A stretch of DNA of 61,886 nucleotides from a virus, in IMG/VR virus record IMGVR_UViG_3300012683_000009; one strand, given 5' to 3'. This document shows, piece by piece, positions 24,603 through 61,737 of this stretch (position 1 is the stretch's first letter; every line of letters begins with the position of its first letter). The translations under genes and the position numbers were made by a program. Below the pieces are notes generated by a model. That model was not told the DNA's origin. It made no database searches and saw only the letters and a list, made by a program, of their open reading frames with translations.

Positions 24603-24633
24603 GAGAGGCGAAGCTGCCTCTCTTTTAGCTCTT
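24603..24633. terminator. Bidirectional terminator between convergent blocks: GAGAGGC-loop-GCCTCTC then TTTT-AGCTCTT
   Basis: Seen in sequence; carries the recurrent TTTAGCTC tail motif. Confidence 0.6.
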
Positions 24634-24837
24634 CTTCTCCGTGACGCCGTCGACGTAGTCGGCGACCTTGTCCTTCGCCTTGCCGAGGAGAATGACAGCC
24701 TCAGTCAGGCGAACGTCTGCCGGCATCTTCTCGACTTCCTGCATGGCCTTGAGGATGGCCGTCTCCGCAGGGACGTACAGGTCTTGGTAGACCCGTCGAG
24801 GGTGCTCCCGACCTTTGTTGTCGCCCTTGGGCATCAT
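24625..24837 (-). CDS. Hypothetical protein (70 aa; start MMPKGDN)
   Basis: ORF 24625..24912 trimmed to ATG forming ATGA overlap with upstream stop. Confidence 0.5.
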   Translation of the reverse strand: MMPKGDNKGREHPRRVYQDLYVPAETAILKAMQEVEKMPADVRLTEAVILLGKAKDKVADYVDGVTEKKS

Positions 24838-25268
24838 ACGGGCTTCTCTCCGACGCCGAAGTACGGCTTGGCGTGGCCAGCCTTGATCATGAGCTGGTTC
24901 AGGTTGGTCCACTCGCCCAGTGGGTCGTAGAAGGCCGACTTGGGATCTGCGACGTTGTGGAACTTCACCGGCAGCCAGAGCTCTCCCAGAATGCGACCTC
25001 CGTACTTGTCGTTCTGGTCCTTGTAGCTCTTCAGCCGAAGCTGCTTCGAGCTCACGGAAGCCTTCAGGAGGCTCTCCAGGAAGAGCTGGGCCACCTTCGC
25101 CGCCGGCGCCGTTGCTCCCTGCAACTCGGGAGTGTTGATGCCGTACATGCGGATGTTCTGCCCGACGGAGATCTGGAAACCGAGGTCGATGTCCACGGAC
25201 ACCGTGTCACCGTCGTGGTTCTTCACGTACGTCGCTCGATACCAGTAGAGATCGTCGTCTGAGATCAT
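24834..25268 (-). CDS. Thermonuclease (staphylococcal-nuclease-like, SNase) (144 aa)
   Basis: ORF 24834..25367 trimmed; SNase motifs DGDTVSV...RMYGINTPE. Confidence 0.75.
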   Translation of the reverse strand: MISDDDLYWYRATYVKNHDGDTVSVDIDLGFQISVGQNIRMYGINTPELQGATAPAAKVAQLFLESLLKASVSSKQLRLKSYKDQNDKYGGRILGELWLPVKFHNVADPKSAFYDPLGEWTNLNQLMIKAGHAKPYFGVGEKPV

Positions 25269-25423
25269 GCGAGCTTCACCCTCCTCCCAGTGAACTGGCA
25301 CTTCGTGCAGACAGAGACCTTGGGGTCCTTCGCCGAAGGAATCATGTTGCTGTTGCACTTCGGACACTTCATCTCCCCTGCCTTCGGGGCGGGCCGGTAG
25401 GCCCTTCTGTCGACGTCGTTCAT
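25265..25423 (-). CDS. Zinc-ribbon protein (52 aa; CPKC...CTKC)
   Basis: ORF 25265..25489 trimmed to ATG with GGAGGATGAC RBS. Confidence 0.5.
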   Translation of the reverse strand: MNDVDRRAYRPAPKAGEMKCPKCNSNMIPSAKDPKVSVCTKCQFTGRRVKLA

Positions 25424-25424
25424 G

Positions 25425-26138
25425 TCATCCTCCGAAGACGGTTGCGCCTTCCGGAGCGGGAGCCTCTTCCGGCGGCGGGCCCTGGTCAAGGCCTGACAGC
25501 TCCTTGCCTTCGGCCTTGACGAGCTCTTCCTTCATCTTCTGCTCCTTCGCCTCCCGCATCTTCTTGGCCCGCTCTTCTGCGGCGGCCTTCTGGGCCTCGA
25601 TCCTGTGCTGGCGTTCGGCCCTAATCTCCTCTTCGGCTTCCTTGACGAGGAGCTTCTGATCCTCTGAGCTGAGGCCGAGCTTCACGAGCATCTTGGCGAA
25701 GGCCCGGAAGTTGACCTCCATCGAGTCTGCGAGAACACCGTCGTTGTACTGGAGGGCGTTGATGTCCTGAGCCAGTCGGCGGCTCATGGCTGTGTCGAGT
25801 CGCTTGTACTCCTCGAACTTCTGGTCGAGAGGCTTGTTCTTGTAGTCCTCCTCCGCCAGCATGAGAGGGATCTTCTTCGGGTCGATGCCCTTGTTGACGA
25901 GCCGCTGGTAGCGCTCTCGCATGATCTTCTGGCGCTTGAGCTCGATGGCGTTCGGCTTCTTGTCGGCGAGGATGTACGTGTTGCCGTTCTCGTCGACTGC
26001 CTGCTTCTTCCCGTCTGCTCCGACGGTGACCGGGAGGAACTTGCCGTCGATCTCCACCATCTGGGTGGGTTCGACCTCTTCCGGCTCTGCTGCGACGACC
26101 TTCTTGTCTTCCTCTACGACAGTGGAGTCAGGGCTCAC
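25425..26138 (-). CDS. Hypothetical charged coiled-coil protein (237 aa)
   Basis: ORF track. Confidence 0.55.
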   Translation of the reverse strand: MSPDSTVVEEDKKVVAAEPEEVEPTQMVEIDGKFLPVTVGADGKKQAVDENGNTYILADKKPNAIELKRQKIMRERYQRLVNKGIDPKKIPLMLAEEDYKNKPLDQKFEEYKRLDTAMSRRLAQDINALQYNDGVLADSMEVNFRAFAKMLVKLGLSSEDQKLLVKEAEEEIRAERQHRIEAQKAAAEERAKKMREAKEQKMKEELVKAEGKELSGLDQGPPPEEAPAPEGATVFGG

Positions 26139-26551
26139 GACTGAACTTCTCCTTGGGTAGTGCTCTTGGAGGACTTCTTCTTCGTATCTGCTACCACGGG
26201 CGCCGGCACGGGAACAGGTGCTGGGGCGGTGATGACGACAGGCTGGACACCTGGTGGAACTGCCAGAGGACCTGGCGGAGTTGCCAGACCACCAGGGACG
26301 AGCAGAGGCATTCCCATGATCTGCTCGATCTCTTTGGTCACAGCTTCCAGACCACTGAAGAGCTCCTTCACGACCTGCTCGAAGAACTCGTCTCCGACCC
26401 GAACCTTCTCGTCGGTCATGAGCACCTTCTTCGCCTCGGCCCCAGCGACAGGACGGAAGTTCGTCTCCAGGTGGTCGATGAGGTGCTGGTAGATGGCCGC
26501 CTTGCTCCTGGCGGTGGAGACTCTCTTCTGAAGTTCTTGGAACGTGCTCAT
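26135..26551 (-). CDS. Hypothetical protein with Pro/Ala/Val-rich tail (138 aa)
   Basis: ORF track; ATGA coupling. Confidence 0.5.
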   Translation of the reverse strand: MSTFQELQKRVSTARSKAAIYQHLIDHLETNFRPVAGAEAKKVLMTDEKVRVGDEFFEQVVKELFSGLEAVTKEIEQIMGMPLLVPGGLATPPGPLAVPPGVQPVVITAPAPVPVPAPVVADTKKKSSKSTTQGEVQS

Positions 26552-26662
26552 ATCAATTCCTCTTCGGTCTTCGGTACAAGGTGAAGTTGTGACGGTGATA
26601 CGCAGCCGCTGCTCAGGGACCCCGCTGCCACTGCCCGCCGCAGCCGCCTGTGATGGTGAGGA

Positions 26663-27355
26663 CTACCGTTGGCCGATGGTCACGGGCGTGTTGTTCTTTC
26701 TTAGCTCCCGCCCCTGGCGGTGAGAGTCGAGAGCTATGTCAGTCCTCCGCTTGAGCTTCATGCCCTTGCCGATGGTCGCCCAGGCCGAGCTCGTCTTGAT
26801 GAGGCCAGCCTTGTAGAACTGCTTCACCGCCTTGATGTGATCGCAGTCCGTCCTGCGAACCGAGTGGTGGAACTGCCAGTCCTTGCACTCACAGGCGAGA
26901 CGCCCTGACGGCAGGACCTTGACCTTGTACTCTTTGCCCTCGGTCGTGCGGCTCGGAGCGACAGCGATGATGGTCTTCGAGGTGAGCTGGCCGCCGTAGT
27001 TCTTCACGTACTTCTTCAGCTTCGGGTCGGTGAGATCATGACCCAGCATGGCCCTCTGGAACGGCCGGTTCATCAGGTCCTTCTCGAAGCCCGGCCAGTC
27101 CTTCACCTCGGCAGTGTGGAAAGCCTCCGCCTTCTCCTTGTGCTCTTTGCCGGCGGTCTTCTGTTTCTCTCGTGCCAGCCTCCGAGCTCTCGCCTTGTCC
27201 TCTCCAGGAGTCGTCGGAGGCATGCCCTTCGCCACCCGTGCCTTGTTGCCATGGACGGGGCAGGTGGTGAGCCTCGCACTCGGGCAGATGCATTCCGGCT
27301 CAGCAGCGAGCTTCACGAGCTCTTGAGCGAAGGATGGGAGAAGGGCCTCAAGCAT
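26663..27355 (-). CDS. SWIM zinc-finger protein (230 aa; CECKDWQFHH...CDH)
   Basis: ORF track; SWIM signature. Confidence 0.55.
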   Translation of the reverse strand: MLEALLPSFAQELVKLAAEPECICPSARLTTCPVHGNKARVAKGMPPTTPGEDKARARRLAREKQKTAGKEHKEKAEAFHTAEVKDWPGFEKDLMNRPFQRAMLGHDLTDPKLKKYVKNYGGQLTSKTIIAVAPSRTTEGKEYKVKVLPSGRLACECKDWQFHHSVRRTDCDHIKAVKQFYKAGLIKTSSAWATIGKGMKLKRRTDIALDSHRQGRELRKNNTPVTIGQR

Positions 27356-38654: not shown

Positions 38655-38682
38655 GCCCCTAAGAGGGTGTCAAGGAATACCG

Positions 38683-49714: not shown

Positions 49715-50605
49715 GTGACGACGACACCGACGACGACAAGCAGGCTGGTCGAGGCCACGCAGTTCACCATCCAGGACTACGAGATCTTCAAGACCGGAAC
49801 GAAGTTCGACAACAAGTTCCGCCAGGCTGCCATGGAGAAGATGGCCCTGGACGAGAAGGATCCGAAGTCCGAGCTCAACAAGCTCGGCTTCAAGGAGGTG
49901 CGTCGGGTCCGTGTTCTCCGGGAAGCAGGGGACACAGAGGGAACGAACCTGACGCTCGTCTACGAGACGAAGACCGACAAACGAACCCTGGAGATGGCGG
50001 CCTACAAGAAGGATCAGCAGAAGGCTGCCGACGTGAGGTACACCTTCCCGGTCTGGATCGCCGATGCGAAGGTCTACTTGAAGGCCGTCTTCACAGAGCT
50101 CGTGGAGTGGGTCGACGCCAAGACGACCCTCGCTGATCCACACAACCCAGAGCGCAACGTCCAGAAGGACATCGCAGACCAACTGGAAGTGCTCTGCAAG
50201 AAGATGGAAGAGTCGAAGCTGTCGAGCCAGGAGCTCGCCGTGATCCGAGTCGACGTCTACAAGATTCTCCACTCGCACACGAACGCTCAGTTCATCCCGA
50301 ACCTCGACGACACGACGGCCGAGGACTGGCCGAAGGAGAAGCTGGAGAAGGTGCAGGCGACGAATGCGGCACGAAGCGAGCTCTTCCTACGGCTCGACTT
50401 CCTCTCGTCGGCGCTCTGCTTCCTCCCGAAACCGCTGTTCGACAAGTCGTCGCTCCTCACCTACGCCACCTCTCTTCGTCCTCCTCGCCAAGCCCCCAAA
50501 GGGAACGCAGGAAGGCCGCCGAGGGAGAACAAGGGCAACGAGAAGCCGCAGAACCGTCAGCACCGCAATCCGAAGTCAGCAGAGAAGCCTCGTACTCAAG
50601 CGTAG
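49715..50605 (+). CDS. Hypothetical protein (296 aa)
   Basis: ORF track. Confidence 0.55.
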   Translation: MTTTPTTTSRLVEATQFTIQDYEIFKTGTKFDNKFRQAAMEKMALDEKDPKSELNKLGFKEVRRVRVLREAGDTEGTNLTLVYETKTDKRTLEMAAYKKDQQKAADVRYTFPVWIADAKVYLKAVFTELVEWVDAKTTLADPHNPERNVQKDIADQLEVLCKKMEESKLSSQELAVIRVDVYKILHSHTNAQFIPNLDDTTAEDWPKEKLEKVQATNAARSELFLRLDFLSSALCFLPKPLFDKSSLLTYATSLRPPRQAPKGNAGRPPRENKGNEKPQNRQHRNPKSAEKPRTQA

Positions 50606-50662
50606 CGGGTACAGTTCTGGGGATGCCGGCGCTTGTCAGCCTGCCGGCCCGCAACGTGGTGC

Positions 50663-50698
50663 CGGTCCTCGAAAGGGGGCCGGCACATTTCATTTAGG
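50663..50698 (+). terminator. Terminator-like hairpin (TGCCGGTCC / GGGCCGGCA) followed by CATTTCATTT
   Basis: Seen in sequence. Confidence 0.45.
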
Positions 50699-50704
50699 AG
50701 CCCT

Positions 50705-51088
50705 ATGGGACCGAGAAGAATGTGCATCATGCTGGGATGCCCGAACTACGCACTGGAGACGAAGGACACGTGCGGAGGGTGTACTGCCGGGGCCAGCATC
50801 GCAGGTCCGGCCCTGTCGGCTCCCTCTCCTGCTGCCATCGCAGCAGCCGAAGAGATGTTGAGGATTCCCAACGCTCTGGCTGCGGCGGTCAAGACGGCCG
50901 AGGAAGTCACGAAGCAGATGCACGTCCTGTGTGGACAGATGGAGCTCATTGCCCATCTCTTCACGGAGCGCCAACGAGCAACGTCAGCCCCTCCTGCTAA
51001 GAACTACTTCCTCAATGAACAACACACCACACACGTGTCCAAAGCACAGATCCGAAGAGAACGGCGAGAGGCCAAAGCGAGAAGCTGA
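50705..51088 (+). CDS. Cys-rich protein (127 aa)
   Basis: ORF 50633..51088 trimmed to ATG with AGGAGCC RBS. Confidence 0.5.
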   Translation: MGPRRMCIMLGCPNYALETKDTCGGCTAGASIAGPALSAPSPAAIAAAEEMLRIPNALAAAVKTAEEVTKQMHVLCGQMELIAHLFTERQRATSAPPAKNYFLNEQHTTHVSKAQIRRERREAKARS

Positions 51089-51197
51089 GAGCAAGCCTGC
51101 ACGCATTCGCCGCAAGACTCGGAAGTCTGGGTCCGGCCGTTCTCGTAGTCGCTGACTTCATCGGCCACATCTTCGGCATCGAACTCGGAGTCCACTG

Positions 51198-51554
51198 ATG
51201 GCACGCAAGAAGAAGGATCGGCCGTACGAGACCAACCGTTACCGGATGGGCATTCAGGTGACGGCAGGTGGTGTCTCTCTACCCAATGCCCACGTCGTCT
51301 ACGAGGTCTGCTACTCGGACGGCACTTCCCGACTCGAACGAGGGAGGTCCGTGTTCGGAGTGCAGGCAACGAACATCCGAAACAAGAAAGAGAGATTGGA
51401 GGCCGGGCTCACCAGTCGGCCTGATCTCTACACGGTGATGCACGCCGCAGCTCTGCTCAACAGACAGGTCGAAGAGGCCTGCCTCAGCGCTGATGGACAC
51501 TACGACCGGGCCGAGAGGCTCAAGAAGAAGCGCTACAAGGACGACTACTCATGA
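51198..51554 (+). CDS. Hypothetical protein (118 aa)
   Basis: ORF track. Confidence 0.5.
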   Translation: MARKKKDRPYETNRYRMGIQVTAGGVSLPNAHVVYEVCYSDGTSRLERGRSVFGVQATNIRNKKERLEAGLTSRPDLYTVMHAAALLNRQVEEACLSADGHYDRAERLKKKRYKDDYS

Positions 51555-52951
51555 ACAGAGAAGACATCACGCAGATCATCGAGAAACAGAAGACCATCGT
51601 CAGCCTCGCTCTCAGCAAGGGGATCGGAAGCGCCGACATTCGAGTCGATGAAGTCGTCGCCGAGAACGCCAACGAGACCATCGAGAAACTCAAGGCGATG
51701 ATCGAGCTCCCGATGCATCCAGATCCGGAGATCAACAAGGAAGTGAACGCCGACCTTCAAGCAGGAGAGGCAGCCGACAGAGTTGCAGGCCTTCCTTCTC
51801 AGAAGTTCGAAGAGAGCGAGCGAGAGCTGGATGAACGCTTTCGAGGGTGGACACCCACGCCCGAGAACGTCAATCGGCTTCCGGAGCCTCTTCGGCAGTA
51901 CATCCACGACATCGAGACGAAGTGCGATCCGGCTGGTGATGCTCAGCAGATCCTCCTTCTGAAGGACACCGTCAACGGCCAGGTCGTTCGCATCAAAGAG
52001 CTGGAGAACGCCTGCGACACCTTCGAGAAGAACTCGAACGAGGCCTCTCAGGTGTTCGAGGTGCTGATGCGCTACAGCCTGGTGCCTGCTGAGAAACCAG
52101 GTCCGACGTTGGCCGCCATCGTCTCGACTGCGCTGTTGGAGGTCGAGAAGGTCCACACGGCTCTGGGCAAGTTCCCTGGCAGCACCCTTTCCCTGGCAGC
52201 CGAAGTTCGCCTCAACGAGTACCGAGCGATGACCGAGAAGTACGAAGCGATGAAGCTTCAGGTCGAAGAGGCCGAGAAGAGCGTCAAGTTCCTGCTGGAT
52301 ACGGAGGCGATGTCGGCTCCGGACGTGGCAGCTCTGGTCGCTGCGGCCTTGGTCGTCAAAGACCTTCCGGAACCTGGGAGGAAAGCAGTGCAGGCCTTCG
52401 TTCGGAACATCCAGCGGCTCGAAGACAAGCTCGAAACGAAGACCTCGGACTACAACCGGCTCGTCCTCGCAGTGAAGAAGCACCACGATCAGAAGGGCGA
52501 CGACCGCTGCTGGCTCGATGATGCGACGCTCTACCAGGAGACCGGTCTCCAAGGAGCTGAGACAGCTCTTCCCGGCAGGGATGAATTCCTCGAAAACTGC
52601 TCCAGGTTCCATGAGAGCCGGGTGCATCCGAGCGACAAGAACAAGTACATCACCGTGGAGCAGCGCATCGTCAATGCTCGGACGCAGTGGGAGACGGAGG
52701 GCAACGAGCAGCTCAAAGAGAAAGAGAAGACGATCAAGAAGCTCGGCAACATGCTCGACAAGACCGTCGGGGATCTCCGGGCCGCTGTGAAGGTCCAGAG
52801 AGCCTTCAACGAGACCAAGACCATCAGTGGGAGGCAGTTCGCTTCCTCGATGACCAAGTACGTTCTCCCGGCCCTGAAGCGTCTCGGCTGGATTCCAACG
52901 AAAGAGGAGGCACGGGTTGGCAAAGCCAACGGCAGAGTTCGAGGACGTTGA
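51551..52951 (+). CDS. Hypothetical coiled-coil protein (466 aa)
   Basis: ORF track. Confidence 0.6.
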   Translation: MNREDITQIIEKQKTIVSLALSKGIGSADIRVDEVVAENANETIEKLKAMIELPMHPDPEINKEVNADLQAGEAADRVAGLPSQKFEESERELDERFRGWTPTPENVNRLPEPLRQYIHDIETKCDPAGDAQQILLLKDTVNGQVVRIKELENACDTFEKNSNEASQVFEVLMRYSLVPAEKPGPTLAAIVSTALLEVEKVHTALGKFPGSTLSLAAEVRLNEYRAMTEKYEAMKLQVEEAEKSVKFLLDTEAMSAPDVAALVAAALVVKDLPEPGRKAVQAFVRNIQRLEDKLETKTSDYNRLVLAVKKHHDQKGDDRCWLDDATLYQETGLQGAETALPGRDEFLENCSRFHESRVHPSDKNKYITVEQRIVNARTQWETEGNEQLKEKEKTIKKLGNMLDKTVGDLRAAVKVQRAFNETKTISGRQFASSMTKYVLPALKRLGWIPTKEEARVGKANGRVRGR

Positions 52952-53114
52952 GTGCATCGCTGAAACAACCGATGCCATCCTTGTCGTCGTGGAGGGCAAA
53001 GAGCACTGGATCCCCAAGAACCAGGTCAACGAAGACAGCGAAGTCTACGAGAAGGGTGGGGAGGGCACTCTCATCGTCACTCAGTGGATCGCAGAGAAGG
53101 AGGGACTCGTTTGA
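52917..53114 (+). CDS. Hypothetical protein (65 aa)
   Basis: ORF track. Confidence 0.4.
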   Translation: MAKPTAEFEDVECIAETTDAILVVVEGKEHWIPKNQVNEDSEVYEKGGEGTLIVTQWIAEKEGLV

Positions 53115-53512
53115 AAGAGCCCAAGAGCCTGAACGCCATTGAGGAGAGAGCTCGGCGCCGAAGCAAGGAGGGGGAATTCAAGCACCTCATTCGGCTCATC
53201 AACGATCTGCGGAAACAGGACTCCAAGATCAAGAACAAGCTCCACGTCGGAGCCGAACCTCCCAAGGTCGGCGAGGACATCTACGTCGGTGGGAGCATGT
53301 ACATCGATCACGGAGAGGATGACACCGAGGGTGGTCTTGCGGAGGTCACCAAGGTCGAATGGGCGCCTGAGATCAACGGAGGCACCTTCGAGATCGAGGT
53401 CGCTGAGCTCCCCAGCAAAGGCTTCTACTGGAATTCTCTCGTGAACGACCAAGAGATGCTCAAGAAGGAGCACGGCAAGAGCAGAGCTCATCCGGACCCA
53501 GACAACGGGTGA
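53111..53512 (+). CDS. Hypothetical protein (133 aa), TTG start
   Basis: ORF 53084..53512 trimmed; TTGA overlap. Confidence 0.45.
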   Translation: MKEPKSLNAIEERARRRSKEGEFKHLIRLINDLRKQDSKIKNKLHVGAEPPKVGEDIYVGGSMYIDHGEDDTEGGLAEVTKVEWAPEINGGTFEIEVAELPSKGFYWNSLVNDQEMLKKEHGKSRAHPDPDNG

Positions 53513-53532
53513 GAAAAACAGCTCCTCCCGAG

Positions 53533-53540
53533 GGCATAAG
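53533..53540 (+). promoter_or_regulatory. GGCATAAG promoter-like element, then hairpin, then CTTCTCGGGAGGAAG SD and ATG 53598
   Basis: Motif recurrence. Confidence 0.45.
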
Positions 53541-53597
53541 AGAGGTGAGCAAATCGGAAACGTACTTGCTCATCAACTCGCTTCTCGGGAGGAAGCC

Positions 53598-53987
53598 ATG
53601 GATAACATGCAGAAGAACGAATGCGAAACGTGTGGTGGCGGTTTCGATGGGTACACCGCACCAGAGGCTCGGTGCAGGTGCAAGGAGGAGGCGAAGCACG
53701 AGATGCTGCTCGCGGAGACCAAGTACCTGAAGCGCTCCGGGTGGGAGCCTGTCGATCACATCTCGCTGGCGGAGGGCTCCTCGTGGAAAGCTCCGACCGG
53801 CGACGGACCGATCAGCCAGGCGGCTGCGGTCGACATCCAGAAGCAGCTCGATCGTCGGCCGGCCGTTCGTGGTGTGTGGCTGAGGGGGATCACCACGACC
53901 ACCCTCCGCTCGGAGATGAAGGACGCTCACGAGACCGCCAAGATGCAGATTGCGGAGATGAAGCTCCGTCACAAGGTTCACTGCTGA
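53598..53987 (+). CDS. Cys-rich protein (129 aa)
   Basis: ORF track. Confidence 0.55.
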   Translation: MDNMQKNECETCGGGFDGYTAPEARCRCKEEAKHEMLLAETKYLKRSGWEPVDHISLAEGSSWKAPTGDGPISQAAAVDIQKQLDRRPAVRGVWLRGITTTTLRSEMKDAHETAKMQIAEMKLRHKVHC

Positions 53988-54026
53988 CAGCACTGGAGTA
54001 GAATCCCCCCTCCACTCTGGTGCGTC

Positions 54027-54065
54027 CAGAAGCACGAGAACATCCGTGCTTCTGTTTTAGCTCTT
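54027..54065 (+). terminator. Terminator: 10-bp stem CAGAAGCACG/CGTGCTTCTG then TTTT-AGCTCTT
   Basis: Seen in sequence. Confidence 0.65.
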
Positions 54066-54084
54066 GGAGAGGTACCCTGAACGC

Positions 54085-54336
54085 ATGGCACTCCCGGCGG
54101 CAATGAAGAAGGCGTTGATCGACGAGCTCTCGAAGATGGGCGACAAGCACGTCGCCAAGGCGCTCAACAAGATCCTCTTCCAAGAGCCCCTTCAGAAGCA
54201 GGAAGTCGGCCTGCCAGGGAACCAGGGGACCCCTCCCAACCCGAATGGTGGGCAGGACATGGGTGCAGGGCAGTCGCAGAACAACGTCGGCACCAGCCAG
54301 GGACAGGACCCAACAACAGGCCCAGGAGGAGCATGA
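54085..54336 (+). CDS. Hypothetical Gly/Gln-rich protein (83 aa)
   Basis: ORF 54064..54336 trimmed. Confidence 0.45.
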   Translation: MALPAAMKKALIDELSKMGDKHVAKALNKILFQEPLQKQEVGLPGNQGTPPNPNGGQDMGAGQSQNNVGTSQGQDPTTGPGGA

Positions 54337-54509
54337 AGGCGAAGAAGATCATCTCTAAGGTCGGGCGCTGCGCCAGGTGTGGAAAGAACCACCGGGCAGT
54401 GGTCTTCAAGAAGTTCCGTCGGCCGTTGCAGTTCAAGAGCAAAGAGATCCCGACTCACTGGGGCATTTGCCCGGTCACGAAAGAGCCGATTCTCTTCTGG
54501 ATTGGCTGA
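54333..54509 (+). CDS. Small Cys protein (58 aa)
   Basis: ATGA overlap; below cutoff. Confidence 0.4.
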   Translation: MKAKKIISKVGRCARCGKNHRAVVFKKFRRPLQFKSKEIPTHWGICPVTKEPILFWIG

Positions 54510-54528
54510 GCAAAGCACTCTGGTACGA

Positions 54529-54537
54529 GGGGATAAG
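54529..54537 (+). promoter_or_regulatory. GGGGATAAG promoter-like element followed by two hairpins and a GGGGG SD before ATG 54621
   Basis: Motif recurrence. Confidence 0.4.
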
Positions 54538-54620
54538 AACCTTGATGAGAGAGGCAATTCAGCCTCCTCCGTAAAGGAGTGTCCCGTTGAGAGGCAACCA
54601 CCACAACGGGGGTTCGTAAG

Positions 54621-54920
54621 ATGGAACCGGAAAGTACGAACCCTCCAGTTGAAAGCTCTCCGTACCCAGAGCTGAAAGAAGCTCTAGAAGTCTTCGAACA
54701 GGTCGTGTTCTACGAGAAGGAACTAGCTGCCGAGTCCATCTTCATTGGTCATCTGAGCGACCACGTGAAGGGAACAGCGCTGAGGTATCTCCTGGAGGGG
54801 AGACCTGTGCCAGAGATCATTGCGTACCTCGAAGAGGCGCAACGGAGCTTCAAGCAGTACCGTCGAGATCAACTCCCTCGTAGCAACCCTATTCGGGTCT
54901 ACAAGAAGGAGCATCTGTAG
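54621..54920 (+). CDS. Hypothetical protein (99 aa)
   Basis: ORF track. Confidence 0.5.
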   Translation: MEPESTNPPVESSPYPELKEALEVFEQVVFYEKELAAESIFIGHLSDHVKGTALRYLLEGRPVPEIIAYLEEAQRSFKQYRRDQLPRSNPIRVYKKEHL

Positions 54921-55077
54921 TGGAGCCGGGTTCCACAAGAAGACCGAGGTAGAGCAGCCTCCGGTCCCTCCTCCCGAGGCCCGTGTTTCACGGGGGAAAG
55001 AGGCCAGTTCGGCTCTCTCCCTTTAGGTGTCAGACCCACCTGATAGACCAGCAGTGCCACTCAACCAAGGAGCAGTC

Positions 55078-55995
55078 ATGAGCAACAACCACCCACTCAC
55101 GAAGCAGGACGTCATGCAGGAGCTGAGCTCGATGGAGGGCCGCTTGGAGGCTCTTCTGACCCAGTGGCAGTCCACTGAGGAGGAAATCAAGACAGCAGAG
55201 CAGCACCTGGTGGAACGCAAGGAGGCCCTGGACACCATCAAGAAGGAAGTCGACGAGCACCGTACCGGCATCGCCAACATGAGGAACACCCTCGGGACCT
55301 ACCAGCAGATGGAGCTGGTCGCCTCTGGGAACGACGAAGACTTCAACGGTTGCCCTCATGAGTGGCAGCGAGAAGTCATCGTCTTCATGCGTCGCCAGCC
55401 CGGAGTGAAGTTCCACTTCAGCACCATGTTGACCCTCGTGGACAAGAAGCTGCCGACGGAGGTCTTCACGAAGAACCGATCGGCGATGCTGAATCTGATG
55501 GGCCACCTCATCACGAAGGGGAAGGTCGCCAAGGGCAAGAACGGCAACTACTCGTGGGCCGTCTTCCCGAAGGACTGGAAGACGCCTGCTCCAGTGGTGT
55601 CTCTCTTCAAGACTGGGGAGACGATCGATCGCACCAAGGTCGCCAGCAAGTTCGTCGACTGGATCGTCGCTGGCAAAGAGTACATCCAGAAGGATCTGGA
55701 GAAGGAGTTCCACCAGAAGTGCATTGAGGAGGAGCTCTCGTTCGGCACGCCGGACGACTTCAAGAACGACGCCCAGTTCATCGAGCGCCACATCTACGAG
55801 AGGTCGCAGCACGCCACGGGCATCATCTCCGTCTACGAGAAGGACCCCTCAGGTCGAAAGGGAGATGAGATCTCGACACACCTGATCATCTCCAGGATGC
55901 GGCAGCCTCCGAAGGCGCCCTGGGTCATCGTGCCGAACCCCACCTTCAAGATGCCGCCCCTCGGCATCAAGAGACCGGGTGCCAAGGGAGCCTAG
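55078..55995 (+). CDS. Hypothetical protein (305 aa)
   Basis: ORF 55027..55995 trimmed to ATG with AAGGAGCAG RBS. Confidence 0.55.
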   Translation: MSNNHPLTKQDVMQELSSMEGRLEALLTQWQSTEEEIKTAEQHLVERKEALDTIKKEVDEHRTGIANMRNTLGTYQQMELVASGNDEDFNGCPHEWQREVIVFMRRQPGVKFHFSTMLTLVDKKLPTEVFTKNRSAMLNLMGHLITKGKVAKGKNGNYSWAVFPKDWKTPAPVVSLFKTGETIDRTKVASKFVDWIVAGKEYIQKDLEKEFHQKCIEEELSFGTPDDFKNDAQFIERHIYERSQHATGIISVYEKDPSGRKGDEISTHLIISRMRQPPKAPWVIVPNPTFKMPPLGIKRPGAKGA

Positions 55996-56013
55996 AAACT
56001 GAGCTCCGTCCTG

Positions 56014-56021
56014 GGGATAAG
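56014..56021 (+). promoter_or_regulatory. GGGATAAG promoter-like element, then 13-bp-stem hairpin, then CTCTCGGGAGGAG SD and ATG 56073
   Basis: Motif recurrence. Confidence 0.45.
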
Positions 56022-56072
56022 GTGAAGAGGACAGAAGCACTTTGTCCTCTTCACCGCTCTCGGGAGGAGCAC

Positions 56073-56315
56073 ATGAACCAATACATGGAGTCGGAAGTCG
56101 TCAGGGAATTCGAGAAGAAGCTCATCGCACTGCTGTTGAAGAACGAGCCCAATGGCGGGGCTCTCGGTCTAATCGCCTGGATGTGCCGCAACCTTCACGA
56201 AGCGGATCTTCTCATCTTGGAGAGGGTCGAGAAGGAGATCGGCGAAGAGGGTGCGAGAGACTGGCTGGACCGGGTCATCCGCACTGCATTCCCCCAAACC
56301 ATCGCAGCAGCCTGA
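56073..56315 (+). CDS. Hypothetical protein (80 aa)
   Basis: ORF 56022..56315 trimmed. Confidence 0.5.
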   Translation: MNQYMESEVVREFEKKLIALLLKNEPNGGALGLIAWMCRNLHEADLLILERVEKEIGEEGARDWLDRVIRTAFPQTIAAA

Positions 56316-56323
56316 GGAGGCAC

Positions 56324-56968
56324 ATGTCCACGTACGATCCAGACAGTCTCGTAGGCTACACGATGATTCACGCAGAAGAGAGCTGGGGCGGGAAGGGAAC
56401 CTTCGGGATCAAGATCTTCATCAAGGACACAGAGCGAGACAAGCTCGATGTCCCGGTGAACCGTCACGGCAAGAAGGCGAAGTTCAACACCGACGGAGAC
56501 TGGAAGTCTGTCTACGACGCCGTCAAGCTCATCACCATCGGCATCCGGGGCAGCACGGAGAAGCTGAAGCCGGACTTCGCCGAGAAGAAGGTGAAGCAGC
56601 AGGAGTACTACAAGAACCTCTTCGTCGAGGCTGGCATCACCACCGTCTACATGCAGGAGCTGCCAAACGGCTACTGCCCGGAGGGTGGCTGGTGCTGTCT
56701 CGACAAGCCGTGGTTCAAGGTCACCACGCCCTTCGGTCACGTCAAGATCGGCTGGAGGAAGAGCGTCATCAACATCGACTGGACTGAGAGCGACATTCGC
56801 CCAGGCGGAGAAGAGCTTTTTCCGAACGAGAACGTGACTCGCGGAGGGAAGTACAGCGACGAGGCGAAGTACATCCACGCTCATGGCGACAAGAAGGCCA
56901 TCGAGTATCTCAAGGTGCTGAAGCAGGAAGCGGAGAATCCGACACCCGAAAAGAAGGAGGAGCCATGA
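56324..56968 (+). CDS. Hypothetical protein (214 aa)
   Basis: ORF 56042..56968 trimmed to ATG with GAGGAGG RBS. Confidence 0.55.
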   Translation: MSTYDPDSLVGYTMIHAEESWGGKGTFGIKIFIKDTERDKLDVPVNRHGKKAKFNTDGDWKSVYDAVKLITIGIRGSTEKLKPDFAEKKVKQQEYYKNLFVEAGITTVYMQELPNGYCPEGGWCCLDKPWFKVTTPFGHVKIGWRKSVINIDWTESDIRPGGEELFPNENVTRGGKYSDEAKYIHAHGDKKAIEYLKVLKQEAENPTPEKKEEP

Positions 56969-57792
56969 AGTACCTCACGATTCTGATGACGGGGATCGAC
57001 CCCTTCACCAACTCTGCCTCCATCGGGCTCTATCGATGGAAGTGGGTGGCATGGCTCTTCGGTCTCTGGGCCAAGCTTCACTACGGTGGCGGGCTCTTCG
57101 TCCTCTGGCACATCCCGGAGAGTCACCCGCCCAGGTTCAACAAGAAGAACACTCCGTGGAGCTCAATCCAGCAGATCCAGGAGTGCACGAGGTGCGAGTC
57201 AAGGTGGATCTGGGACGGAGTCTTTGCTCCCACGTGGGTGTGGTCGAAGGCGCCTTGCTTCGACTGCGTCTGCGAGGCGAAGGCTCAGGGGTTCGACTCT
57301 CCTAAGAAGGCTCTAGGCAGAGTCACCGTCTCGGTCAAAGGAGAGGTGATCACCGCAGAGGCGATCCCCATTCCAAGGAAGCAGCTCGGGGTCCCTCTCC
57401 TTCCTTCTGGTGAGCCCGATTGCCCTGAGTGCGCCAACGGCATGACCCATGACCAGTGCAGAACGGGCTGGAAGGCGGTCTTGCAGGCCAACCTGGAGGC
57501 CAAGGTCGCAGACGGCTCTCTTCCGAAGTGGCGACCTCCGTGCAACACCTGCGGCAGCAACTGCGGCCAGTGCGGTAGCAGTCACTGCGGAATCTGCGGT
57601 GTGAAAGGTGGGTATCCGCACAACGGAAAGTGCGACCAGGCGATGCACGCAGCCTACGAGGCCACGAAGTGTGGGCTGTGTGGGAAGTACGCAGCTCACT
57701 TCTGCGTGGACAACAAGGTCGCCGGTGAACAGTACAGCGCCAGAAGCACGTACAAGAAGGGTGAGAAAGACGCCATGGGAGATTCCATGTGA
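56965..57792 (+). CDS. Cys-rich (about 20 Cys) membrane-anchored protein (275 aa)
   Basis: ORF track. Confidence 0.55.
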   Translation: MKYLTILMTGIDPFTNSASIGLYRWKWVAWLFGLWAKLHYGGGLFVLWHIPESHPPRFNKKNTPWSSIQQIQECTRCESRWIWDGVFAPTWVWSKAPCFDCVCEAKAQGFDSPKKALGRVTVSVKGEVITAEAIPIPRKQLGVPLLPSGEPDCPECANGMTHDQCRTGWKAVLQANLEAKVADGSLPKWRPPCNTCGSNCGQCGSSHCGICGVKGGYPHNGKCDQAMHAAYEATKCGLCGKYAAHFCVDNKVAGEQYSARSTYKKGEKDAMGDSM

Positions 57793-57919
57793 GAAGCCTT
57801 CTCGTGAAGAGCGGAGTGCGAGGCAATTGGGGCTACGCCTGGCACTGCGCCAACTACAAGAAGCCCCGTTTCCCGAAGAGGGTACTCAGGACGGTTCTGA
57901 TGTACCTGGGGTTCATGCC

Positions 57920-58132
57920 ATGAAGAATCTGAAGAAGGATGCACCGTCTCGCAACGTTGGGGAAGTGGGCAAGGGCGACTTCATCAAGGTGGGATCCGTC
58001 TGGAAGGAGATTGCTCACAACTCAGGAGAAGGTCCAGAGTACCAGAGTGACTGGTCGGTCGAGACCACCGACGGAAGTCGTCACGGCATGTTCAACATCA
58101 AGCGGTACGCCAAGAAGGAAGACCTGGAGTAG
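57920..58132 (+). CDS. Hypothetical protein (70 aa)
   Basis: ORF 57608..58132 trimmed. Confidence 0.5.
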   Translation: MKNLKKDAPSRNVGEVGKGDFIKVGSVWKEIAHNSGEGPEYQSDWSVETTDGSRHGMFNIKRYAKKEDLE

Positions 58133-58137
58133 GGGTC

Positions 58138-58168
58138 GGAGAGAGGCCGTCGCCTTTCTCCTTTAGCC
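58138..58168 (+). terminator. Terminator hairpin (GGAGAGAGGC / GCCTTTCTCC) then TTTAGCC
   Basis: Seen in sequence. Confidence 0.5.
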
Positions 58169-58326
58169 TTCACTTTTCCTGCTCAAACCACCCTCCTGGT
58201 GGCCCATTAGAGAGTGAGGCGTTTCGAACCGACCGGTTCACGCCCCTCTGTAACGGACCCACCCTCTATTTCCGGGTTGTCACGCTTCGCCCTATTCAAG
58301 GGAGAGCGACCGGGGTCTATCAGGAG

Positions 58327-58542
58327 ATGAACATGTCACCACAGGCGAAGGCTCTCTGGCAGCGGTACTTTGGACAGTTCCCCAAGTCGATGAGGTACCG
58401 GCCCGATGGCATCACGGCTCGGCCCATGGAGCTGATGAGCTACCTGGTGGTCACGGTCGAAGGACCGGGTGGAGTGATAAGCTCGGGCGGCTACAAGTGC
58501 GGCCCTCTGCCTGCTTCTGGAGGTAGGAAGTGGCCTGGCTGA
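58327..58542 (+). CDS. Hypothetical protein (71 aa)
   Basis: ORF track. Confidence 0.5.
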   Translation: MNMSPQAKALWQRYFGQFPKSMRYRPDGITARPMELMSYLVVTVEGPGGVISSGGYKCGPLPASGGRKWPG

Positions 58543-58567
58543 CAGAGGCAAACAGTCTTCTCCCCAC

Positions 58568-58575
58568 GGCATAAG
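58568..58575 (+). promoter_or_regulatory. GGCATAAG promoter-like element, then hairpin, then CTCTCGGGAGGAG SD and ATG 58627
   Basis: Motif recurrence. Confidence 0.45.
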
Positions 58576-58626
58576 GGAAGAGCAGGAAGAAGCATTCAGC
58601 TTCTTTCAGTCTCTCGGGAGGAGACA

Positions 58627-58971
58627 ATGGATCGATACGCTTGGGTGCAGAACTACAACCGGGTCGCAAAGCAGTGGAACGACAGCTACGAGAAGTTCTC
58701 GACGCTGCCTCCTGGCCGCATCAGGGAGAGTGCTCTGGAGCTGCTCCAGATCCAGGGTGCGGACATCATCTTCTTCTTGAACCTGGTCTGGGGCGCCCTC
58801 ACGCCCGAGGACTTCAAGAACCTGGGGCTCATGCAGGGAGCGATGCCGGTGCTGGTCGACGTGGATGATCCTCACGTCATCGCCGGCTTCCTCCTCTTCC
58901 AGGACAACAAGGGGCCGAAGGTCGAGGGCTACGTCGAGGCGCTTCAGAAGGCGGTGAGCTATGCCAACTGA
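58627..58971 (+). CDS. Hypothetical protein (114 aa)
   Basis: ORF track. Confidence 0.55.
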   Translation: MDRYAWVQNYNRVAKQWNDSYEKFSTLPPGRIRESALELLQIQGADIIFFLNLVWGALTPEDFKNLGLMQGAMPVLVDVDDPHVIAGFLLFQDNKGPKVEGYVEALQKAVSYAN

Positions 58972-59200
58972 CATCCCAGAGCTCGTCATCGCCAACAGCC
59001 AGATGGAACCCAACATGTGGTACGTGCGCCGAGGAGACGGGAGCACGAGCCACCAAGACGTGGCCGTCATCTTCGTCTTCGGAAAGGTGAGTCAACATCT
59101 CCCCTCTCCGGAGGTGCTGGACTTCATCAACGAGAAGCTCGGTGCGAAGACGATCGAGCAGCTCTTGCAGGAAGCTGAGAACCGAAAGGGGCAGCGATGA
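58961..59200 (+). CDS. Hypothetical protein (79 aa)
   Basis: ORF track. Confidence 0.5.
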   Translation: MPTDIPELVIANSQMEPNMWYVRRGDGSTSHQDVAVIFVFGKVSQHLPSPEVLDFINEKLGAKTIEQLLQEAENRKGQR

Positions 59201-59472
59201 ACTTCTACCGGTTCACACTGGCAGACCTCATCACGGAGCTCATCTTGCTGCCGCTTCGCCCCATAGCGAGGTGGTACTACCGGGAGTCTCCGAAGCCGCC
59301 CCACTACGGGAACACGACCTACGTGGTGAAGAGGCACTTCATCAACGGAGAGGAGCCGATGGAAGTGGGACGAACCACGGACTACGGGGCCGCTCTGGAG
59401 CTCGCCGAGAAGGTGAAGATGACGGAGAACTTCGACCCGTTCTTCAAAGAGGCACGCATCCACGTGGAGTGA
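59197..59472 (+). CDS. Hypothetical protein (91 aa)
   Basis: ORF track. Confidence 0.5.
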   Translation: MNFYRFTLADLITELILLPLRPIARWYYRESPKPPHYGNTTYVVKRHFINGEEPMEVGRTTDYGAALELAEKVKMTENFDPFFKEARIHVE

Positions 59473-59537
59473 GAACTCCAAGGAGGAGCCCAGGGTCTTA
59501 CCTGGCGCTTCTTCTAGCTCCCAAACCAAGGAGACAA

Positions 59538-59777
59538 ATGACGTTCTCATCAATCAGGTACGAAGGACCGATGTGCCAGGCGATGGTGGTGGCCGAGGTG
59601 AAACATCGTCTCGAACTCGCCATCACAGAGCTCAGGAAGATGAACGACGGGTTCGCTGCGATCGGAGCCGAGGGGACCAACACCAAGCTGAACAACATCA
59701 TCGGCAGGTTGCTGGACCAGAAGGAAGACCTCTACTACCTCCACTGCGAGCTCGAACAGGATCTCAAGAACCGATGA
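59538..59777 (+). CDS. Hypothetical protein (79 aa)
   Basis: ORF 59142..59777 trimmed to ATG with AAGGAGAC RBS. Confidence 0.5.
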   Translation: MTFSSIRYEGPMCQAMVVAEVKHRLELAITELRKMNDGFAAIGAEGTNTKLNNIIGRLLDQKEDLYYLHCELEQDLKNR

Positions 59778-59977
59778 AGACGAAAGAAGAAGCCATGCTG
59801 GAGCTGGAGATGAGGCTGTTCGTCCAGAAGATGGACAAGGTCCCAGATGTAGAGGACCTCAGCACTCAGGCCAAGGAACAGACCATCGAGAGGCATACTC
59901 TCTGGGCCGCCGAGAGCGCCATACAAGAAGCCAAAGTCTTCTTCTCGGTGCGTAGTTTGGGCCCGGACCCGACATAG
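59774..59977 (+). CDS. Hypothetical protein (67 aa)
   Basis: 3' part of ORF 59573..59977 from ATGA-overlap ATG. Confidence 0.45.
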   Translation: MKTKEEAMLELEMRLFVQKMDKVPDVEDLSTQAKEQTIERHTLWAAESAIQEAKVFFSVRSLGPDPT

Positions 59978-59987
59978 GAGTCCTACA

Positions 59988-60260
59988 ATGAACGGCAAGA
60001 AGATGACGAAGAGGGAGATTCTGACCGATCTCAACACGGTCTTGGGCAGGACTTACGAGAAGCTCGTGAAGAGCGAAGAAGAGCTTGAGAAGCTGGAATA
60101 CGCCTTCACCGTGCTGGGCCATGGCAACGGTGGGCAGATCATTCGGCGACTGAGATACGAGATTCAGCAGTCGAAGACCGACGTGAACTGGGCTCTCAAG
60201 ATGGTGAAAGAGGAGGGTCTCGCCCTCCTCAAGGTGAAGTCCAAGAGCAAAAAGACGTGA
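59988..60260 (+). CDS. Hypothetical protein (90 aa)
   Basis: ORF track. Confidence 0.5.
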   Translation: MNGKKMTKREILTDLNTVLGRTYEKLVKSEEELEKLEYAFTVLGHGNGGQIIRRLRYEIQQSKTDVNWALKMVKEEGLALLKVKSKSKKT

Positions 60261-60324
60261 CTCTTCGGGACAAGGTCGTAACGGAAGACATCTCGTCTTC
60301 TGGTTCTCTCGGGAGGAGAACATC

Positions 60325-60474
60325 ATGACCATCGGAACCTACTTGAAGATCCTCGTTCACGGCATCGCCATCGGGTATGCGTACCACGATGAAATCAACG
60401 AAGGCATCGAGCTCGGGGCGAAGGCGGCGGTGAAGGGCTACCGGCTGCTTCGTCGGAAGCTGGCGCAGGCCTGA
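60325..60474 (+). CDS. Small protein (49 aa) preceded by CTCTCGGGAGGAG SD
   Basis: Manual; below cutoff; coordinates +/- 2 nt. Confidence 0.4.
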   Translation: MTIGTYLKILVHGIAIGYAYHDEINEGIELGAKAAVKGYRLLRRKLAQA

Positions 60475-60476
60475 CA

Positions 60477-60566
60477 TGTACCTCGAACTGGCAGGCGTGG
60501 TGATGATCGTCTGGGCACTCTGTATGAGCACCTACTGGGTCATCAGGATCGTGAAGAAGCGCTGAC
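60477..60566 (+). CDS. Possible 29-aa transmembrane peptide (MYLELAGVVMIVWALCMSTYWVIRIVKKR)
   Basis: Manual; very short. Confidence 0.3.
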
Positions 60567-60688
60567 CCGTTGGGTCGGCTCGGAGGGTACCCACCCTCCT
60601 CTTAGCTCTTCGCCGAAATTCTTCCTGATGATGTGGGACAAGGAGGGAGTGGGAGACATCTTGTCTCTCGTTCTCGGGAGGAACACAC

Positions 60689-61024
60689 ATGCCGCATACC
60701 AAGACGGTCATCACCATCGAGCTCGATCAGCAGCTCGCACCTGAGGTGAAGAAGGAGCTCGCTGAGCTCTTTGCTGATGCCCTGCACGAGTTCAAGGGCA
60801 ACCGGTTGCCCATCTACAGCTACTTCGAGCGGAACTACGGGAACAAGTCGGTCTACAAGACCGAGGCGGAGAAGGCCCGGAAGATGGCCCAGATTGACCG
60901 ACGGGTGACTCTGGCCGGGATGCTCCACAACCCGGTGCTGCGGCTGGAGGTCAAAGAAGAGGAGGTCCCCGACAAGTTCGAGCCGGGGTCTCCGGAGTAC
61001 GAGGCCGTCGCAAGGAGCGAGTGA
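60689..61024 (+). CDS. Hypothetical protein (111 aa) preceded by TTCTCGGGAGGAAC SD
   Basis: ORF track. Confidence 0.5.
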   Translation: MPHTKTVITIELDQQLAPEVKKELAELFADALHEFKGNRLPIYSYFERNYGNKSVYKTEAEKARKMAQIDRRVTLAGMLHNPVLRLEVKEEEVPDKFEPGSPEYEAVARSE

Positions 61025-61266
61025 GCATGCCCTTTTGCGCCTGTCACCAGAACCTCCGGGATGTAGACCTCGTGGTCATGCTGGAGAAGGACGCCACGAA
61101 GTGTGACTCCCTCTGGGTTCGTTGGTGCGCTGTGCACCAGGACGAAATCGAAAGGGAGGTCATGGCCTGGCTGAACAAGCACTCCCTGGTCGGCCGCATC
61201 ATGAAGCTCCGGGACCTACCAAAAGAGCAGCGCAACATCGGCAACCTCGGAAGGACCAAGCCATGA
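61021..61266 (+). CDS. Cys-containing protein (81 aa)
   Basis: ORF track. Confidence 0.5.
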   Translation: MSMPFCACHQNLRDVDLVVMLEKDATKCDSLWVRWCAVHQDEIEREVMAWLNKHSLVGRIMKLRDLPKEQRNIGNLGRTKP

Positions 61267-61700
61267 GCCACGGGCACTCTAAGTGGTACACCGACTTGGC
61301 CATGGTGCGAGAGCGCCTGGACGTCCGTGGGCGCACCATGAAGGAGACCATCGAGGCGCTCACGAAGCTCGGCCTGATGAGCCCCGTAGTCGAGGAGATG
61401 GTGCTGACGGTGAAGGTCCTGGGAGAGTGCGCCAACACGGTGAACAACTCGATCCAGGAGGTCAGCATCACCCTCAACGAGATGGGCTACGAGCTCGAAC
61501 GGGCCAAGAAGCTGTCGTCTGGGCCTGTACATGCGCTGGAGAAGAGCACGGGCACCCTCAAGGAGTTCCAGAGTCTGGCGGCCATCCCAGAGGGGTGGGT
61601 CCATGTTCAGAGGGTCATCGGCCAGGAAGGCACGAACTTCAAGCCATGGAAGGACAACCTGGTGAAGCGTAAGAAGTCCAAGCGCAAGGCCAAGAAGTAG
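61263..61700 (+). CDS. Hypothetical protein (145 aa) with basic tail
   Basis: ORF 61122..61700 trimmed to ATGA-overlap ATG. Confidence 0.55.
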   Translation: MSHGHSKWYTDLAMVRERLDVRGRTMKETIEALTKLGLMSPVVEEMVLTVKVLGECANTVNNSIQEVSITLNEMGYELERAKKLSSGPVHALEKSTGTLKEFQSLAAIPEGWVHVQRVIGQEGTNFKPWKDNLVKRKKSKRKAKK

Positions 61701-61705
61701 GGTCT

Positions 61706-61737
61706 GGGGGAGCACTTCCCCCTTTCCTTAGCTCTCT
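61706..61737 (+). terminator. Terminator: GGGGGAG-cac-TTCCCCC then TTTCC-TTAGCTCTCT
   Basis: Seen in sequence. Confidence 0.55.

Follow-up and report, generated by a model that had tools for sequence, protein, structure and literature searches.

A recurrent hairpin-plus-motif unit was found 3′ of genes in a 61,886-base, 59% GC stretch of viral DNA (IMG/VR record IMGVR_UViG_3300012683_000009, referred to in its entirety as the window) and in the genomes of related phages. The unit combines a GC-rich stem, zero to three pyrimidines, and the motif TAGC(T/C)C(T), and this architecture recurs about 39 times at at least 14 loci, always with the motif on the sense strand and 3′ of a stop codon. Across related genomes the tail is conserved despite turnover of the stems. 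We put about even chances on the reading that an uncultivated phage clade uses these units as factor-independent (intrinsic-type) terminators at the close of its transcription units. Within this reading, the formation of RNA 3′ ends at the units and the recognition of the motif by the polymerase are inferred.

The hairpin-plus-motif unit

Six hairpins with a shared TTAGCTC tail had been listed in an earlier note on this DNA, and all six are present as cited (Table 1). The exact tail is found at four of them, and the remaining two carry the variants TTTAGCC and TCTAGCTC. Two further sequences that had been counted as variants, TTAGCA on the minus strand (at about 3187) and TTAGC at 11090, proved to lie inside hairpin loops (3181–3195 and 11080–11101) rather than after a stem, the second of these hairpins having been placed slightly off, at 11065–11086. 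Hairpin stability z-scores across the six window sites span −0.6 to −3.1, and the scan-tool threshold of 5 or more T among 8 bases is passed by three of the six. At site 1, the TTA at 24625–24627 doubles as the TAA stop codon of a minus-strand gene for 70 amino acids (aa), and near site 3 a second hairpin (60561–60579) overlaps the stop codon of the upstream gene.

Over the 39 curated sites, which include those of the relatives, the folding free energy (dG) of the stems ranges from −11 to −27 kcal/mol. The commonest tails are TAGCTCT (15 sites), TAGCCCT (9), TAGCTCC (4), and TAGCCTT (3). In a set of 30 sites, C stands at position +3 of the motif in 29 and at +5 in 25, and +4 is split between T (20) and C (10). 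T occupies +6, a position not used in site selection, in 22 of the 30, and +7 and +8 are variable. In 35 of the 39 sites the last G:C pair of the stem is separated from TAG by 0–3 nucleotides (nt), pyrimidines only, and this tight spacing argues for a single hairpin-plus-motif unit. The 5′ arms of the stems are purine-rich and the 3′ arms pyrimidine-rich, so that the RNA contains a long pyrimidine tract interrupted solely by the A-G of the motif. Between stem and UAG there are about 2 U on average, and U makes up ~53% and C ~39% of the eight positions preceding TAG. The idea that the motif pairs with sequence 5′ of the hairpin was considered and rejected (mean 3.5 versus 3.57 in shuffled flanks).

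Conservation of the tail across relatives

A search with the rIIA-like protein retrieved graded homologues (82, 75, 75, 73, 62, 53 ... % identity), the longest contig among them being 203 kb, and the open reading frame (ORF) at 55078–55995 retrieved the same genomes. Contigs recovered for the clade reach 111 kb (Logan SRR22868763_12400), 164 kb (JGI 3300072776 Ga0613662_000094), and 203 kb (Logan SRR29078113_21924). Syntenic stretches from five further phage genomes were compared (L095 and L099 on one contig, L096 and L100 on one contig, L097, L101, L164, and L163), with protein identities to the window of 31–82%. The hairpin-tail architecture is kept in L163, the most distant of them (anchor protein 31% identical, 54% GC), and in the stretches from the relatives, coding-strand TAGC words flanked by pyrimidines almost always sit 3′ of a strong hairpin. 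The recurrence in related genomes that the earlier note proposed to look for is thereby established.

At the orthologous site 1 junctions of the window, L095, L096, and L097, four unrelated stems precede a retained tail. Orthologous stems have likewise been rewritten at sites 3–6 with the tail kept (TAGCTC is retained at site 6 in L099, L100, and L101), and the site 2 stem displays two compensatory pair changes among five orthologous sequences. Such retention of the tail while orthologous stems turn over points to selection on the tail. Tail losses are occasional, namely TACC at site 2 in L100 and TAGT at site 5 in L101 and site 3 in L100. The coding surroundings of site 1 also differ: the motif is noncoding in L097, a convergent 52-aa gene ends ...AGC TAA on it in L095 and L096, and in the window, where two genes are inserted, it is a different, 70-aa gene that ends ...AGC TAA on it. 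Three coding arrangements around an unchanged motif show that it was the coding sequence that adapted, and not the motif. The insertion (24625–25268, minus strand) comprises the 70-aa gene and an SNase-like nuclease gene and separates the putative site 1 terminator from the 52-aa gene, which in L095, L096, and L097 directly adjoins that terminator; the boundary of the insertion is the hairpin-plus-motif unit.

The heptamer is strictly conserved, keeps a fixed distance from a helix and a single orientation with respect to transcription, and has many copies per genome; it could also be the binding site of a phage or host protein, on RNA (hairpin base and tail) or on DNA. Such a protein would impose or modulate termination, or would govern how the next gene is translated, in a manner comparable to Nun or N on nut sites or to cluster A stoperators. 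We regard this explanation as improbable, given that seven bases are short for a DNA-binding protein and that no candidate was recognized among the 106 window proteins; a hairpin-specific protein is unlikely because stems and loops are not conserved.

More distant IMG/VR relatives, at ~40% rIIA identity or less, each contain a single clear terminator, whose tail is TTTTTTAGCTTC; these were left out of the counts and hint that the motif may reach further. Other searches were negative: megablast of 50000–61886 against GenBank phages gave no match, and nothing was returned by an IMG/VR search seeded with the DUF3150 protein, by metagenome scans with the ORF at 55078–55995 and with its alignment, or by an IMG/VR scan with a 429-aa protein alignment.

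Enrichment in sense-oriented spacers

TTAGCTC occurs five times in the whole window versus 3.66 expected, and five or more copies were reached in 30 of 100 shuffles. An enrichment of the motif, as the earlier note proposed to test, is therefore absent from the overall count and instead emerges in position. Four of the five copies start 3–6 nt 3′ of a hairpin at a gene end, after the stop codon. Because TTA is rare in the window (57 plus-strand copies), plain word counts favor spacers, and a context-matched test was used in which purine pairs within pyrimidine tracts (YYYY-RR-YYY) were scored for the share of T-AG-C by genomic context. In the window, T-AG-C makes up 5 of 18 cases in sense-oriented intergenic DNA versus 5 of 333 elsewhere (Fisher p = 4e-5). 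Pooling with the relatives gives 29 of 79 versus 24 of 1057, with p = 3e-22, a value that overstates independence because many sites are orthologous; the independent loci were estimated at ~14. The pooled cases elsewhere comprise 15 of 663 antisense to coding, 6 of 285 sense coding, and 3 of 109 opposite-oriented intergenic, so that T-AG-C accounts for ~2% in context-matched controls versus 37% in sense-oriented intergenic DNA. Occurrence at a similar frequency in coding sequence, named in the earlier note as a finding that would refute a signal, is not what the counts give once context is considered (~2% in coding DNA versus 29 of 79).

In sense-oriented spacers, TAGC is furthermore the commonest word after a stem-loop of at least 7 pairs and a pyrimidine run, being found in 10 of 116 such cases versus 2 of 1134 elsewhere (p = 2e-9). 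Energy-only hairpin calls are useless here, because half of the positions in GC-rich DNA score −9 kcal/mol or better, and they were replaced by stem rules and the pyrimidine-context test. Streptomyces phage Mildred21, which resembles the present phage in lifestyle (tRNA array, transfer-messenger RNA (tmRNA), rIIA, and rIIB) and served as the negative control, did not show the association of hairpin and motif.

These figures leave little room for the explanation that the tail has no function of its own and reflects chance, the composition of AT-rich words in a 59% GC genome, relics of tRNA D-arms, back-up stop codons, or descent from duplicated terminators. The chance-level count of TTAGCTC in the whole window would agree with it, as would the rarity of TTA and TAA in coding DNA, by which such words gather in spacers, and the fact that TAGCTC also starts the tRNA D-arm (TAGCTCA) on a contig with at least 31 tRNAs. 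It is nevertheless largely refuted, and very improbable, in view of the context-matched controls, the lack of enrichment in opposite-oriented intergenic DNA, the preservation of tails across deep divergence next to stems that are unrelated between sites, and the absence of any association in Mildred21 despite its tRNA array.

Several specific candidates were rejected. A tRNA relic (cloverleaf, D-arm TAGCTCAG) disagrees with the absence of ARAGORN and Rfam tRNA calls at the motif sites and with T at +6 in 22 of 30 sites, where a tRNA has A. As a back-up stop codon, TAG would have to be read in the frame of the upstream gene; its frames relative to that gene number 10, 13, and 7, and it is in frame in 10 of 30 sites. 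TAGCTC lacks the T at the last position of a sigma-70 −10 element, and a mini-ORF across the hairpin was dismissed on inspection. Repetitive extragenic palindromic (REP) elements or substrates of REP-associated tyrosine transposases (RAYTs) were discarded because the palindromes are not conserved and no transposase family was found among the 106 proteins.

Placement in transcription units

The motif lies 28–45 nt from the same-strand stop codon in most cases and was found at every major convergent gene junction checked. Convergent junctions with the motif include site 1 in four genomes and a second junction (L099 16403, L100 16584), where the TTA of the motif is again a minus-strand stop codon (L099 16402, L100 16583). 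Just beyond the window start, 31 tRNA genes occupy 8 kb (stretch L002, 12341–20432), interspersed with an HNH endonuclease gene and small ORFs. The motif is absent between these closely packed tRNAs and present on both strands at the junction of two converging tRNA arrays. A tRNA-Ser-like sequence in L002 (13905–13990, minus strand; acceptor GGAGAGT.../...GCTCTCC, atypical T-loop), which is not an ARAGORN call, is located, where the tRNA array ends, directly 5′ of a CTGTTTCTCTTAGCTC copy. About 60% of the sites are followed by a promoter-like GGG(C/A)(A/T)(T/C)AAG, a hairpin, the ribosome-binding context TCTCGGGAGGAG, and ATG, which yields the usual order of terminator and then promoter.

The suggestion of a conserved termination or processing signal in the earlier note is partly supported, by a tail kept while stems change, by strict confinement to the sense strand, and by placement at transcription-unit ends, convergent junctions included; the results do not single out its reader among host polymerase, phage polymerase, and RNase.

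Table 1. Positions of the six hairpin-plus-motif units of the window and of associated spacer features (dG, folding free energy; z, stability z-score).
Feature	Position	Strand	Details
Site 1 hairpin, GAGAGGC-GAAGCT-GCCTCTC	24603–24622	+	dG −13.2 kcal/mol, z −2.0; tail TTTTAGCTCTT; convergent junction 3′ of DUF3150 gene 23541–24596, shared with minus-strand gene 24625–24837
Site 1 motif, TAGCTCT	24626–24632	+	preceded by TTT
Site 2 hairpin, 10-bp stem	54027–54054	+	dG −18.8 kcal/mol, z −2.8; tail TTTTAGCTCTT; between genes 53598–53987 and 54085–54336
Site 2 motif, TAGCTCT	54058–54064	+	GGAGAGG ribosome-binding site of next gene directly 3′
Site 3 hairpin, GGAGGGT-ACCC-ACCCTCC	60582–60599	+	tail TCTTAGCTCTT
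Site 3 motif, TAGCTCT	60603–60609	+	followed by promoter-like GGGACAAGG, 5′ hairpin, and ribosome-binding site, all within 85 nt
Site 4 hairpin, GGGGGAG-CAC-TTCCCCC	61706–61722	+	3′ of gene 61263–61700; tail TTTCCTTAGCTCTCT
Site 4 motif, TAGCTCT	61729–61735	+	TAGCCCT in orthologues
Site 5 hairpin, GGAGAGAGGC-CGTC-GCCTTTCTCC, 10-bp stem	58138–58161	+	3′ of gene 57920–58132; dG −19.4 kcal/mol, z −3.0; tail TTTAGCCTT
Site 5 motif variant, TAGCCTT	58164–58170	+	orthologues TAGCTCT (L100), TAGTCTT (L101)
Site 6 extended hairpin (short core 59490–59505)	59481–59515	+	3′ of gene 59197–59472; dG −23.2 kcal/mol, z −3.1
Site 6 motif, TAGCTCC	59515–59521	+	directly at stem end; then ribosome-binding site of next gene and ATG at 59538
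Second spacer architecture	49016–49070, 53513–53597, 54510–54560, 55996–56072, 58543–58626		
Second spacer architecture, further loci	60261–60324, 60620–60688, 11030–11126, 38680–38719		
Conserved stretch after site 5, in relatives	L099 12930–13085, L100 12040–12200, L101 13145–13343		

Termination or processing

As a terminator, the unit would consist of a GC-rich hairpin with a pyrimidine-rich 3′ arm, 0–3 pyrimidines, and the heptamer UAGC(U/C)C(U). Lying at about +2 to +10 past the stem, the heptamer would coincide with the segment expected to form the RNA–DNA hybrid when the polymerase releases 7–9 nt past the stem. It may replace the distal U-tract and act in cis as a sequence-specific pause/release element, which the polymerase in charge of these genes, whatever its identity, would read on the nascent RNA or on the non-template DNA strand. 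An integrated terminator of this kind fits the tight spacing, the strict sense orientation, the placement at unit ends, and the absence between packed tRNAs.

Several observations weigh against termination. At sites 2 and 6 and at L099 12406, the next ribosome-binding site follows immediately 3′ with no intervening promoter; such sites must be leaky or otherwise functional, because an efficient terminator would silence the downstream gene. Roughly four terminator-like hairpins in the window (45105–45128, 50659–50686, 20010, and 14020) are without the motif. With only ~2 U before UAG, the tails are weak by the Escherichia coli rule. Finally, no polymerase, sigma factor, or termination factor was recognized among the 106 window proteins, with at least half of the genome lying outside the window; the 106 proteins likewise gave no RNase family. 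One of the motif-free hairpins (50659–50686, GCGCCGGTCCTCGAAAGGGGGCCGGCGC) has a stem that is itself conserved in its orthologues (L099 5600, L100 5303, L101 3904), and in its tail, TTTTCTTTAGGAGCC, the T-run passes straight into an AGGAG ribosome-binding site. This hairpin represents a class distinct from the TAGC units.

The promoter-less sites, with their ribosome-binding sites directly downstream, would suit processing better than termination, and the main rival explanation is accordingly an endoribonuclease that cuts in the single-stranded UAG/CUC (the slash marking the cut) just 3′ of the hairpin. The upstream RNA would keep a protective 3′ stem-loop and the downstream RNA a short leader, and the enzyme could be a host one of RNase E or RNase Y type or an unrecognized phage one. 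Mycobacterial RNase E cuts single-stranded RNA at RN/CNU, with C at +1 in 85–90% of sites (PMC10641625); AG/CUC resembles this loosely, matching four of these five positions, and, set in a single-stranded C/U-rich stretch beside a structure, fits R at −2, C at +1, and the C-rich context. This phage also makes heavy use of 5′ and 3′ hairpins, and the tRNA-like element that closes the tRNA array is followed by a motif copy. On the other hand, the motif is missing between the 31 packed tRNAs, where processing must occur, and present at every major convergent junction checked. The T, A, and G of the motif are as strict as the C, whereas RNase E preferences are weak beyond +1; position +3 of the cleavage context is C, not U, in 25 of 30 sites; and a single-strand site would not require a gap to the stem as small as 0–3 nt. 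Taken together, we consider cleavage unlikely.

A further reading is that UAGCYCU constitutes a true sequence code for transcript 3′ ends, read by a clade-specific factor. This is possible, with the balance tilted against it. The factor could be a phage RNA polymerase or sigma factor of non-canonical type, in keeping with promoters that likewise have a non-canonical, GGGCATAAGA-like appearance, or else an endoribonuclease dedicated to the task. If the code were real, the clade would run its own promoter and terminator punctuation, independent of the host U-tract rule. Were the heptamer needed for 3′ ends, this phage would be the second large phage after phiKZ with a terminator signature of its own, and one in which the single-stranded tail alone, not the stem, carries the information. 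The unit would then offer a compact, portable terminator element, a simple marker of transcription units in genomes of the clade, and a handle on the reading factor, and terminator predictors tuned to U-tracts would miss such elements.

Comparison with known systems

The class II termination signal of T7 RNA polymerase is ATCTGTT followed by a U-run and works without a hairpin. It resembles the present motif as a sequence-specific signal of ~7 nt that makes a phage polymerase pause or terminate, and differs in sequence and in being hairpin-free; no T7-like polymerase gene was found among the 106 window proteins. Cluster A mycobacteriophage stoperators are repressor sites of 13–14 bp without an adjoining hairpin. 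They too are short asymmetric intergenic repeats in one orientation relative to transcription, whereas the repeat described here has 7 nt and is tied to a stem.

The boxA of nut sites and rRNA antiterminators reads YGCUCUU(U)A. Its hexamer GCUCUU is present at three window sites, near a hairpin, but the UUUA end is absent and many copies have GCCCU or GCUCC instead. An antiterminator role, which the earlier note had mentioned, is unlikely, because the motif follows the hairpin and is found at convergent junctions, at which transcription has to end. A boxA/nut site, with a GCUCUUUA core upstream of overridden terminators, was rejected on the same grounds and on the variability of +7 and +8.

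Canonical intrinsic terminators share with the units a GC-rich hairpin just past the stop codon, a U-containing tail, the sense strand, and occurrence at convergent junctions. They differ in that the units have 0–3 pyrimidines and a near-invariant UAGC(U/C)C(U) in place of a U-tract, which canonically spans about 7–9 nt directly past the stem, and a stem whose 3′ arm is consistently pyrimidine-rich. In Streptomyces, Term-seq led to no report of a sequence motif beyond stem and U-tract (PMC8269248).

The nearest precedent is the conserved terminator of jumbo phage phiKZ, in which 61 terminators mapped by 3′-end sequencing share a stem-loop followed by TTAT, with the consensus 5'-BCCYCCCCHWWDGGGRRGGBYTTATKYYGT-3' (PMC10914365). 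Both systems are phage-specific, place a shared element directly 3′ of the stem at many terminators, and have tails that start Y-U-U-A. The phiKZ ends are experimentally mapped. The phiKZ stem, Y-rich in its 5′ arm, is itself conserved and is followed by the tail TTAT-KYYGT; here, stems are free with an R-rich 5′ arm, the tail is a fixed TAGCYCT, and the phiKZ-type conserved stem CCYCCCC...GGGRRGG with YTTATKYYGT was not observed. phiKZ uses its own polymerases, and none was recognized among the 106 window proteins.

Other conserved spacers

A second spacer architecture consists of a promoter-like GG(G/C)(C/A)(A/T)(T/C)AAG(A/G), 5–20 nt, a hairpin, and TCTCGGGAGGAG with ATG (Table 1). It is not sigma-70-like, is kept in L099, L100, L101, and L164, and may represent a phage-specific promoter with a stabilizing 5′ hairpin and a fixed ribosome-binding context. 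A pattern scan of IMG/VR for promoter plus ribosome-binding site (ATAAG-N20-50-TCTCGGGAGGA) gave single matches at chance level.

The ~170 noncoding nt after site 5 (58170–58330) are conserved (CCTGCAC..CTCTGGTGGCCCATTAG..TTTCATTTCCGGGTTGTCACG); possible identities are a small RNA and a promoter region. A conserved noncoding block also follows site 4 (CTTCAGCATGACATCACCCGGACGAACCCCTCCAGAACTACCCCAAGAAAAAACAGAGCC; window 61745–61815, L101 16470–16545, and L099 ~16960–17000 on the minus strand). It is located at or near the contig ends in the window and L100; possible explanations are a nearby genome terminus or a regulatory function. The fifth exact TTAGCTC of the window (26701–26707, plus strand) lies antisense within a minus-strand gene, and its TTAGC is an island of conservation in four of four genomes (L095 15966, L096 16005, L097 15976), adjoining the conserved block GGACTACCGTTGGCCGATGGTCAYGGGCG.

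The phage genome

The window corresponds to bases 1–61886, reversed, of the 88,861-bp metagenomic contig k141_1051315 (ENA ERZ27253174), except at positions 1400, 3073, and 3087. The latter two form a compensatory pair, C-G in the window versus T-A in the ENA record, in a hairpin (3072–3088) inside an ARAGORN tRNA-Ser(cga) call. These three base differences, compensatory pair included, make it likely that the window and the ENA record are variant assemblies of one phage.

Genes are on the plus strand at 10.3–24.6 kb and 38.7–61.9 kb and on the minus strand elsewhere. Recognizable genes encode rIIA-like and rIIB-like proteins, an AAA ATPase, Cpn10, and an SNase-like nuclease. RNA genes comprise two or three tRNAs and a tmRNA, and no family could be assigned to most of the remaining window proteins. 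No close cultured phage was found, the best rIIA identity being ~30%. Searches for the host in GTDB genomes gave nothing with the phage Cpn10, and with the rIIA alignment a single match of 27% identity in an Actinomycetota metagenome-assembled genome, which is not informative for the host.

The tmRNA (42765–43149, plus strand) scores 151 bits with Rfam and has the tag ANDNVELADSPVRLAA. A protein of 896 aa (11127–13817, plus strand), present in all relatives, has a vault repeat in addition to a major-vault-protein shoulder domain (Pfam E = 1.6e-30), and its best GenBank matches are in the uncultured huge phages LR756500, LR756501, and LR756503, at 37–41% identity.

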